DNA of 64,000 nucleotides from an archaeon (GTDB lineage: Archaea; EX4484-52; WAPT01), in assembly GCA_029258795.1 (NCBI GenBank), contig JAPDKB010000002.1:160001-224000 (forward strand), read 5' to 3'. Positions 16,574 through 16,858 of the stretch are shown here, in pieces. The notes under the pieces were generated by a model. That model did no database searches, was not told the origin of the DNA, and saw nothing but the letters and a program-made list of their open reading frames with translations. How positions within the stretch are numbered: the first letter of the stretch is position 1; every line of letters starts with the position of its first letter. The translations under genes and the position numbers were made by a program.

Positions 16574-16773
16574 TGGTGCCGAGGGGGGGATTTCCTGCCA
16601 CCAGAGCAGGAAGCGCGACGAAGCTTTGCTTCGGCGGCGTTCGAACCCCCGACCTCCAGATTTCTCAGCGCCGTAACACAAAATCATCGCTTGCTCATTA
16701 CTCGGCAAACTCATCACTCATAAGCCAACACGGCTTATGAGTCTGGCGCTCTAACCAGCTGAGCTACCTCGGC
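16574..16773 (-). tRNA. tRNA-Met (CAT), probably elongator, with two introns (37/38: 16662-16735; 59/60: 16591-16639); CCA encoded
   Basis: GCCGAGG/CCTCGGC acceptor stem, anticodon stem CCAGA/TCTGG, T-stem GGGGG/CCCCC; BHB (CTCA/TGAG) at 37/38 and a relaxed BHB in the T-loop. Confidence 0.93.
16662..16735 (-). ncRNA. 74-nt tRNA-Met intron carrying a putative C'/D' K-turn guide for C34
   Basis: GGCUUAUGAGU is the reverse complement of ACUCAUAAGCC. It is followed by D'-like AUGA, stem GUUUGC/GCAAGC, a 3-nt bulge and GAUU; CUGA lies near the 3' end. Confidence 0.6.
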
Positions 16774-16858
16774 ACCGAACAAAAGCGTGGCTCCGTAACA
16801 GAATTTTTATCCGGCAAAATTTTATAAAAATTCACACGGCAGCTTCACAAAAACCTTC

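Follow-up and report, generated by a model that had tools for sequence, protein, structure and literature searches.

The window analysed here is a 64,000-nucleotide (nt) stretch of an archaeal contig (JAPDKB010000002.1 of GenBank assembly GCA_029258795.1, positions 160,001 to 224,000 of the forward strand), and it belongs to a 1.17-Mb archaeal assembly, denoted G000, that is 96% complete. The minus strand of the window carries, at positions 16773..16574, a 200-nt gene for elongator transfer RNA (tRNA)-Met(CAU) that is composed of three exons and two introns and encodes the CCA end. The first intron, at 37/38, contains an antisense guide followed by a kink-turn (K-turn) of the D'/C' type, an arrangement that would direct 2'-O-methylation to the wobble base of the same tRNA, C34. 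Standard tools for tRNAs and RNA families fail to detect this gene: ARAGORN reported no tRNA in the window and, run with its intron option, also missed the gene genome-wide, and Rfam gave no match in the window at gathering score. At relaxed thresholds the Rfam tRNA model aligned to the gene with 24.1 bits and a 76-nt insertion. The initial annotation had placed the feature at 16662-16742, which correctly spans A31 to the final intron base and leaves the second, T-loop intron of the gene outside.

The gene encodes the elongator tRNA-Met and neither the initiator nor tRNA-Ile2, because the only other CAU tRNA found in the genome has the A1-U72 pair and GGG/CCC anticodon stem of an initiator, and because a tRNA-Ile(UAU) gene exists; the genome was searched with custom patterns and ARAGORN, which together are not exhaustive. 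The tRNA-Ile(UAU) gene (G000:C2:124019-124140) has an intron of ~50 nt and lies outside the window. A third CAU tRNA, Ile2, was not found in the genome by the same combination of patterns and ARAGORN, and AUA may be read by the UAU anticodon.

An 11-nt stretch of the first intron is a perfect complement of A31-A37 plus the first four intron nucleotides, as the initial annotation had stated, and every element of the arrangement could be located on the minus strand (Table 1). Directly 3' of this antisense element, one base past its end, stands the D'-type box AUGA. Counting upstream from the box gives G (1), U (2, pairing with A31), G (3, pairing with C32), A (4, pairing with U33) and G (5, pairing with C34), which puts C34 at N+5 and bears out the earlier claim that the fifth base upstream of AUGA faces the wobble base; this G is at 16719. 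The guide-target duplex, for which archaeal C/D guides usually have about 10-12 base pairs (bp), is 11 bp long in the window intron and 7-10 bp in many relatives. A strict scan of the genome demanded a self-complement of 7 nt, a single base between it and xUGA, and a stem of 3 bp or more leading to R-U-G-A; it returned three sites, two of them in tRNA genes, namely this tRNA-Met and tRNA-Leu(CAA). A relaxed scan returned 31 sites, compared with 10 in the reversed genome, and its tRNA matches were solely Met, Leu(CAA) and Trp. The guide-plus-K-turn arrangement thus exceeds chance. No separate trans-acting guide for C34 of tRNA-Met was found in the genome, where the other guide-like matches lack a box context.

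The initial annotation had proposed aligning tRNA-Met introns of related genomes, and both guide and K-turn proved to be conserved. BLAST of the whole precursor against 40 relatives recovered homologous genes, whose introns are shorter, at about 50-55 nt, and which share a common plan: the anticodon-loop target, a 4-6-nt loop, (U)AUGAGU, one base and then CUGA, AUGA or UUGA, followed by a hairpin, a 3-nt bulge xAU and GA. The hairpin stems differ by lineage (CUCAG/CUGGG, CUCUGC/GCAGGG, UUCC/GGAA, CCAUC/GAUGG). A census of 42 genomes of the phylum with an exon-only pattern gave 28 matches, comprising two chance matches in coding sequence, one intronless gene and 25 intron-bearing genes; 24 of these 25 were read (G030:C90 was left out), and each of the 24 has the guide, one base and xUGA at the same spacing. 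Three further genes from families f2 and f7, recovered by BLAST, also carry the guide and xUGA, which brings the count for guide and spacing in the phylum to 27/27. Family f2 combines G at position 31 with C, not U, as the last guide base, a compensatory change (A-U in 96 introns, G-C in 2) that affects the pair competing with the 31-39 pair of the anticodon stem.

Beyond the phylum, a pattern that fixed guide, box and spacing was scanned against named genomes, one per species, and matched at least 119 stretches; among the 80 listed as loci, 79 are archaeal tRNA-Met genes and one is a chance match in a bacterium. Grouped by submitters' titles, these loci, at least 79 in number, are Micrarchaeota-type (29), unnamed archaeal (13), "uncultured Methanosarcinales" (12), Woesearchaeota (8), Hadesarchaea/Hadarchaeota (8), Nanoarchaeota (3), Aenigmatarchaeota (2), Marsarchaeota (2), Nanohaloarchaea (1) and Methanobacteriota (1). 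The most similar named intron among the matches listed is L033, titled Aenigmatarchaeota. The module also occurs in the complete genome of a Micrarchaeum grown in co-culture (L076). A metagenome scan that fixed only the two exon ends was blind to intron content, and the 80 of 120 stretches listed contain 75 unique introns. Among these listed matches a 5'-proximal guide is present in 16 of the 75, and UGA stands at the exact N+5 offset in 14 of the 16 and GGA in the remaining two, the chance of UGA being 1/64 for each; three further motif matches were spurious. The other 56 unique introns have no self-guide and belong to other intron families. Of the guide-less families (loci L165-L244), one starts with GGGUUU and ends with CUGAGAC or CUGGGAC, and another contains CACUCAAGAC. 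The module is therefore a lineage-restricted family that is not universal in tRNA-Met introns, with a box spacing that is fixed where the guide exists.

The box itself is xUGA in all 98 unique introns parsed (AUGA 65, CUGA 20, UUGA 12, GUGA 1); it was demanded by the search pattern for 79 of the 98, and not for the phylum or metagenome sets. Neither search pattern demanded anything beyond this D'-type box, so the stem and C' box that follow it are free observations. In the window intron the box is followed by a 6-bp stem, GUUUGC/GCAAGC, and by GAU-GA, which corresponds to a RUGAUGA-like C' box forming a K-turn or K-loop with D'; by sequence rules the elements of a K-turn are present, that is a stem, a 3-nt bulge, tandem sheared G.A pairs and a non-canonical stem starting with U.U or similar. 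Across unique introns, a stem of 3 bp or more, beginning directly after the box and ending exactly three bases before GA, occurs in 76 of 97 (78%), compared with 9.9% of shuffles, and one of 4 bp or more in 38 of 97 (39%) versus 3.6% of shuffles. The 76 stem-bearing introns include 40 distinct stem sequences, and in 75 of them the bulge is N-R-U (GAU 35, AAU 19, UAU 15, UGU 5, other 2), which matches a C or C' box. In Hadarchaeota and family f2 the stem is replaced by a short K-loop. At K-turn position 3b the same 76 introns have U (45), C (22), A (7) or G (2), and the opposite U is invariant. A compensatory A-U pair had been proposed for the fourth K-turn position in place of the usual C-G; it holds in the window sequence and is not conserved, this position being paired in 27 of 76 introns where 21.9 would be expected if the two sides were independent.

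Covariation points in the same direction. RNAalifold was applied to 30 anticodon arms picked for diversity from about 100, 15 from the phylum and 15 from the named-genome pattern scan, and it predicted the guide:anticodon helix and the stem, and not the splice helix. Paired cells in this alignment amount to 96.2% versus 83.3% in shuffles, with none of 500 shuffles reaching the observed value; the covariation score is 0.379 versus 0.132 in shuffles, and slid controls pair at 26-42%. At three stem pairs both sides have changed, in 14, 9 and 12 of the 30 sequences. The guide helix is largely invariant, its exon strand being constrained, and most of the aligned sequences were selected for it, so for this helix we draw weight from the unbiased sets. 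The covarying stem, together with the 76 introns of the same arrangement, upholds the proposal of a D'/C' K-turn after the guide.

The same module recurs in two other tRNA genes of G000. In tRNA-Leu(CAA) (G000:C3:113040-113229, L285) the target ACUCAAG faces the guide in CUCUUGAGU-G-AUGA, followed by GCC..GGC-AAU-GA, and in tRNA-Trp(CCA) (G000:C2:24474-24647, L286) the target GCUCCAG faces CUGGAGC-G-CUGA, followed by CGCAAG-GAUGA. Both have a K-turn or K-loop, place C34 at N+5 and also contain a T-loop intron. In the phylum, the module is present in all nine intron-bearing Leu(CAA) genes (eight by pattern and one long-loop case by eye; three other Leu(CAA) genes are intronless) and in all 11 intron-bearing tRNA-Trp genes. 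No such intron was found in tRNA-Leu(UAA) of relatives or in tRNA-Leu(CAG) of G000. In five genomes from other phyla, strict patterns identified one tRNA-Trp with the module (L321), the other eight matches being outside tRNA genes and probably coding, and no tRNA-Leu(CAA) with the module matched these narrow strict patterns. In Pyrococcus, C/D small RNAs (sRNAs) target the wobble base of four tRNAs, among them Met, Leu(CAA) and Trp, according to the accessible part of PMC7994747, and the tRNA-Trp intron has been shown to guide formation of 2'-O-methylcytidine 34 (Cm34) and 2'-O-methyluridine 39 (Um39) (accessible part of PMC7994747; PMC2584109; PMC4033218). We regard the fixed box register, with a guide that tracks the anticodon loop, as the strongest argument for a module that would be aimed at C34. 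As a separate observation, tRNA-Leu(CAG) and tRNA-Leu(CAA) have a 94-nt 3' part, including the T-loop intron, that is 100% identical (G000:C5:31266-31400 and G000:C3:113136-113229), which suggests a recent duplication or gene conversion of a tRNA half with its intron.

The guide of the tRNA-Met intron shares its target with the splice site. Intron 1 has a motif of the bulge-helix-bulge (BHB) type in which CUCA (32-35) pairs with UGAG (16667..16664) as the central helix, flanked by the 3-nt bulges UAA and AAA; cutting at this motif would leave a correct anticodon loop. When anticodon arm and intron are folded together, the minimum free energy (MFE) structure, at -29.0 kcal/mol, is the guide hairpin including the GUUUGC/GCAAGC stem, and enforcing the BHB gives -26.9 kcal/mol, a cost of 2.1 kcal/mol. 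Since both structures use C32-A35, they exclude each other, in agreement with the initial annotation, which had the guide competing with the CUCA/UGAG helix; its further proposal that methylation comes before splicing is supported by these modelled folds, from which we infer that methylation would have to precede splicing. The counterpart of UGAG in relatives is UGAG, UAAG, UGGG or CGAG, and over the 30 relatives 92.6% of cells of the splice structure pair overall and 83.3% in the central helix. In 11 of the 30, C34 is unpaired, facing A in the BHB central helix (UAAG for UGAG; alignment column 8/96), and the wobble base is the one unpaired position of that helix in those relatives. In four introns of Woesearchaeota/Nanoarchaeota type (L067, L037, L073, L102) the 3' half has a same-sense copy of the anticodon loop, for example GACUCAUAUGCG or AAUCUCAAGAG; this copy could base-pair with the guide and may serve as a decoy within the intron, leaving the anticodon available to the splice fold.

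We consider it probable that the intron is a natural C/D guide with one K-turn, which directs formation of Cm34 in the precursor before splicing and is in competition with the splice helix. L7Ae would bind the K-turn, Nop5 and fibrillarin would then assemble, and fibrillarin would 2'-O-methylate C34, whose partner is the guide's fifth base counted upstream from the box. Methylation would come before splicing, since the guide helix occupies the C32-A35 needed for the BHB with UGAG, and two precursors probably share one Nop5 dimer because the RNA has a single K-turn. The core of this interpretation, an intronic antisense element and D'/C' K-turn that place the tRNA's own C34 at N+5, was already advanced in the initial annotation and is supported by the 27/27 conservation, the covarying stem, the G31-C compensation and the Leu(CAA) and Trp modules. 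Genes for the proteins are present in G000, fibrillarin and Nop5 being adjacent (C1:308167-309446) and L7Ae separate (C1:48294-48572), and fibrillarin is encoded in 5/5 module-bearing genomes of other phyla.

Several points weigh against this reading. Nearly all archaea encode fibrillarin, which makes its occurrence weak evidence. The C34 guide has no C box upstream of it, and the family has no conserved terminal C/D motif: the 3' CUGA becomes CUAA, CUGG or CGAG in relatives, the pair GUGAUGA plus CUGA that could provide a terminal motif occurs in this genus only, and with that pair as the terminal motif the C34 antisense falls outside the guide position, so that a bipartite architecture with a second K-turn is absent. 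No second K-turn partner for the 3' CUGA was found by eye in exon or intron. A single-motif hemi-complex is barely active in vitro in usual conditions and methylates non-specifically, and specificity was restored by adding a second C/D motif (both from the accessible part of PMC1635284). Nor does the fourth K-turn position covary, and the C' box has two D' boxes as possible partners, which means that the K-turn serving C34 is not the sole possible fold. The relatives are not independent of each other, the pattern that supplied 79 of the sequences for the K-turn statistics had guide and box built in, and in many relatives the guide helix is just 7 bp long and closed by a 4-6-nt loop. Two precursors on one Nop5 dimer would be a plausible way round the weakness of a single motif, because a half-mer RNA has been crystallised with its target in the Pyrococcus particle (Xue 2010, as described in the accessible part of PMC6239191).

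A partnership of two RNAs leads to the best-surviving alternative, that the guide acts in trans only: the excised, probably circular, intron or a second precursor would methylate other precursors and no intramolecular action would take place. For the guide in the tRNA-Trp intron, cis action was the original proposal; reviews state that action in trans, or between molecules, was demonstrated later (accessible part of PMC7994747; PMC2584109), and in vitro work on pre-tRNA-Trp favoured it. Archaeal tRNA introns, that of tRNA-Met included, are circularised and can be stable (PMC3326292; PMC12558985; accessible part of PMC3491384), and two RNAs per Nop5 dimer would provide the absent second K-turn. 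We nevertheless think exclusive trans action unlikely: the link between target and guide is just 4-6 bases in most relatives, and the cis hairpin, which is the MFE fold, must open for an intermolecular duplex to form. Cis and trans action are not separable from the sequence alone.

It is less likely still that the K-turn hairpin binds L7Ae for a role other than methylation, as a precursor chaperone, anticodon mask or splicing timer, with the N+5 register as a relic. L7Ae does bind many K-turn RNAs other than C/D sRNAs (see the RNA immunoprecipitation sequencing paper PMC5539422), the guide hairpin and BHB are alternative folds of similar energy, which suits a switch, and the intron has no second K-turn of the kind required for specific methylation in vitro. 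Drift would be expected of a register that was a relic, yet it is kept in 27/27 Met, 9/9 Leu(CAA) and 11/11 Trp intron-bearing genes of the phylum and in 14/16 guide-bearing metagenome introns, and the module is confined to tRNAs that have a guided 2'-O-methylated wobble base (Nm34) elsewhere, tRNA-Leu(CAG) and tRNA-Leu(UAA) of the phylum being without it.

In this lineage the intron can also be read as a full C/D RNA. The absence of a canonical C box, as the initial annotation put it, holds for the region upstream of the guide and overlooked GUGAUGA, a canonical C-box sequence that is made up of the last guide bases, the spacer base and the D' box and that completes a C/D reading with the 3' CUGA. 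The alternative box order is C (GUGAUGA), guide GUUUGCCGAGUA, D' (AUGA), a 6-nt K-loop, C' (GAUGA), a 15-nt spacer and D (CUGA). GUGAUGA is shared by the window intron, L033 and the two genomes of the same genus, G001 and G002. In these four introns the K-turn hairpin loop is enlarged and holds GAGU-NN-UGA, which repeats the motif made of guide end and box; the first 11 bases of the second guide, GUUUGCCGAGU, do not differ among the four, and the stem partner strand changes (GCAAGC, GGCGGC, GGCAGGC) yet pairing is kept. In this genus and its nearest named relative the hairpin loop has gained a second guide and D' box, and the excised intron could act as a full C/D sRNA on 23S ribosomal RNA (rRNA). 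Against its own 23S rRNA the second guide forms 11 contiguous pairs at 1761-1771 (own numbering; the G001/G002 variant forms 12), with C1764 as the predicted target. This match is marginal, as 111 of 2000 shuffled guides equal it. The 15-nt D-side spacer has no convincing rRNA or genomic target. Rfam places the Pyrococcus C/D sRNA sR11 at 16721..16664 with 23.9 bits (E = 0.03), below the gathering score of 39. At G000:C2:16110 the second guide matches perfectly (12/12), but within an apparent coding sequence, and this match was taken as chance, roughly 0.14 such matches being expected genome-wide. We put at about even the chance that the second guide has a real second function on 23S rRNA. Since both readings use the same C' box, C34 guidance and 23S guidance would act in succession; we speculate that the K-turn would serve in the precursor first and the full C/D sRNA in the excised intron afterwards.

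That the intron is solely the host of an ordinary complete C/D sRNA acting on 23S after excision, its anticodon complement being structural or leftover and not directed at C34, is the least probable of the alternatives and quite improbable in itself: the four boxes in canonical order at near-canonical spacing, the sR11 and 23S matches, and the retention of GUUUGCCGAGU, the next xxUGA and the 3' CUGA in G001, G002 and L033 while partner strand and spacers vary all favour it, but taken exclusively it fails family-wide, where heptamer positions 3-4 vary (AA, UA, GC, UU, GU, AC, GG), which fits a D' box and not a C box because a C box could not tolerate changes there, where the second guide is absent from most relatives and CUGA from many, and where the matching guides of tRNA-Leu and tRNA-Trp are left unexplained, quite apart from the marginal 23S match, the sub-threshold sR11 score and the spacer without an rRNA target.

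Table 1. Elements of the split elongator tRNA-Met(CAU) gene, in window positions.
Feature	Positions	Strand	Remarks
Whole elongator tRNA-Met(CAU) gene	16574..16773	(-)	3' end UCCCCC-CCUCGGC-A-CCA read directly; Rfam tRNA 24.1 bits
TATA-like element, A/T-rich, AUAAAAAU	16803..16810	(-)	30-37 nt upstream of tRNA 5' end; direct reading
Exon 1, positions 1-37, GCCGAGG-UA-GCUC-AGCUGGUUA-GAGC-G-CCAGA-CUCAUA	16736..16773	(-)	C34 = 16739
Intron 1 at 37/38, 74 nt	16662..16735	(-)	boundary ambiguous inside A run
Exon 2, positions 38-59, A-UCUGG-AGGUC-GGGGG-UUCGAA	16640..16661	(-)	
Intron 2 at 59/60, T-loop, 49 nt	16591..16639	(-)	BHB-like motif
Exon 3, positions 60-76 including CCA, U-CCCCC-CCUCGGC-A-CCA	16574..16590	(-)	
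Target strand ACUCAUAAGCC, A31-A37 plus intron bases 1-4	16732..16742	(-)	
Loop GUGUU between target and guide	16727..16731	(-)	
Antisense guide GGCUUAUGAGU, perfect 11-nt complement of target	16716..16726	(-)	G at 16719 pairs with C34
Spacer base G between guide and AUGA	16715	(-)	
D'-type box AUGA, one base past guide	16711..16714	(-)	3' part of C-box-like GUGAUGA (16711-16717)
K-turn C-stem 5' strand GUUUGC	16705..16710	(-)	compensatory variants in L033 and G001/G002
Second guide GUUUGCCGAGUA, 12 nt	16699..16710	(-)	overlaps K-turn stem strand
Second D'-type box AUGA, inside hairpin loop	16695..16698	(-)	xxUGA kept: UAUGA in G001/G002, GGUGA in L033
K-turn C-stem 3' strand GCAAGC	16689..16694	(-)	6-bp pairing with GUUUGC
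C'-type box, bulge GAU (16688..16686) plus GA (16685..16684)	16684..16688	(-)	followed by UU
15-nt spacer UUUUGUGUUACGGCG	16669..16683	(-)	its CGGC can pair with intron 5' GCCG
CUGAG, D-box-like CUGA overlapping UGAG	16664..16668	(-)	UGAG is 3' strand of BHB central helix

The second intron of the gene, at 59/60, is absent from G001 and G002 and so is a recent gain or loss. Its BHB, read by eye, pairs UUCG with AGGA with one mismatch and has a 7-bp outer helix, and the MFE fold of the T-arm region pairs the parts of this motif just partly. Other families of the phylum also have T-loop introns of this kind (L008, L016, L017, L033). Elsewhere in G000, contig C11 has four intron-less tRNA genes (Thr, Gly, Tyr, Thr) within 330 bases (165-495), in contrast to the intron-rich tRNA genes in the rest of the genome. 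Three contigs (C10, C12 and C17) have 28-31% G+C compared with 40-50% in the other 20, and may be foreign or mobile DNA in the bin.

The closest functional parallel to the proposed tRNA-Met guide is the intron of archaeal pre-tRNA-Trp, known from Haloferax volcanii and as Pyrococcus sR50, which guides Cm34 and Um39. Both are 37/38 introns of their own target, with an antisense element upstream of a D' box and C34 at N+5. The tRNA-Trp intron is described as carrying C/D and C'/D' sets with two guides, in contrast to the tRNA-Met family, which has one guide, one K-turn and a short target-guide loop, and no C box at the corresponding place. Competition with the splicing fold and the use of L7Ae, Nop5 and fibrillarin are described for tRNA-Trp (accessible part of PMC7994747; PMC2584109; PMC4033218), in line with the premise in the initial annotation that an archaeal tRNA-Trp intron guides its own methylation, and would be shared by the tRNA-Met module. 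The tRNA-Met module would work like the tRNA-Trp intron guide, yet it departs from the canonical bipartite C/D architecture.

For tRNA-Met itself, the initial annotation had mentioned that a C/D-like intron may have been reported in Nanoarchaeum, and such an account exists: the elongator tRNA-Met intron RNA of Nanoarchaeum equitans is long (66 nt) and stable, contains a consensus box D, a 6-bp GC hairpin and, in the middle of the intron, a variant box C, and was put forward as a candidate C/D sRNA (Randau 2012; accessible part of PMC3491384). By this description, the only basis of our comparison, its layout fits a box-hairpin-box order; the accessible part of PMC3491384 names no target, antisense element or N+5 relation. 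A literature search for an intronic tRNA-Met guide yielded only this report, intron-borne guidance being described for tRNA-Trp only, and Additional file 5 of PMC2584109, with 18 tRNA-Met guide candidates, may have contents that bear on novelty. Pyrococcus sR49 and Haloferax sR-tMet have the same target, C34, and the same need for unspliced pre-tRNA-Met, but they are separate genes, in keeping with the initial annotation, which had euryarchaeal Cm34 of tRNA-Met guided by a separate sRNA; the tRNA-Met antisense RNA "is not intronic" (PMC2584109).

Other likenesses are partial. Engineered half-mer or hemi box C/D RNAs likewise have one guide and then one K-turn hairpin; they are synthetic, weak and non-specific (accessible part of PMC1635284), in contrast to the design in the window, a natural and conserved one whose target lies in cis. 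Pyrococcus sR11 (Rfam RF01150) resembles the full C/D reading in box order and in the start of its D' guide, GUUUGCC, but it is not intronic. For Haloferax sR-tMet an unusual C'/D' motif was reportedly noted by Joardar in 2011. Human SNORD97 and SCARNA97 are also box C/D guides for Cm34 of elongator tRNA-Met (PMC6601510), but unlike the window intron they are eukaryotic and trans-acting, reside in messenger RNA introns and have a full C/D architecture.

A wider hypothesis can be formulated, which we offer tentatively and hold to be rather doubtful as a whole. In genome-reduced archaea a single-K-turn particle would methylate the wobble C of its own precursor in tRNA-Met, tRNA-Leu(CAA) and tRNA-Trp; the guide hairpin and splice motif would form a two-state switch with Cm34 as a splicing checkpoint; and in this lineage one box would serve as D' in the precursor and as C in the excised intron, recycled as a C/D sRNA for 23S rRNA. 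Such reuse may also indicate how free guides (sR49, sR-tMet) originated from introns, or the reverse.

Intron-borne self-guidance of wobble methylation is established for tRNA-Trp only. If our interpretation of the tRNA-Met intron is true, it would represent the smallest natural C/D-type guide and would challenge the need, seen in vitro, of two box motifs for specificity. It would also provide a simple setting in which to test whether modification or splicing comes first. Conserved cis guides, in tRNA-Met as well as tRNA-Leu(CAA), would then be a functional reason for the persistence of these particular introns in very small archaeal genomes.

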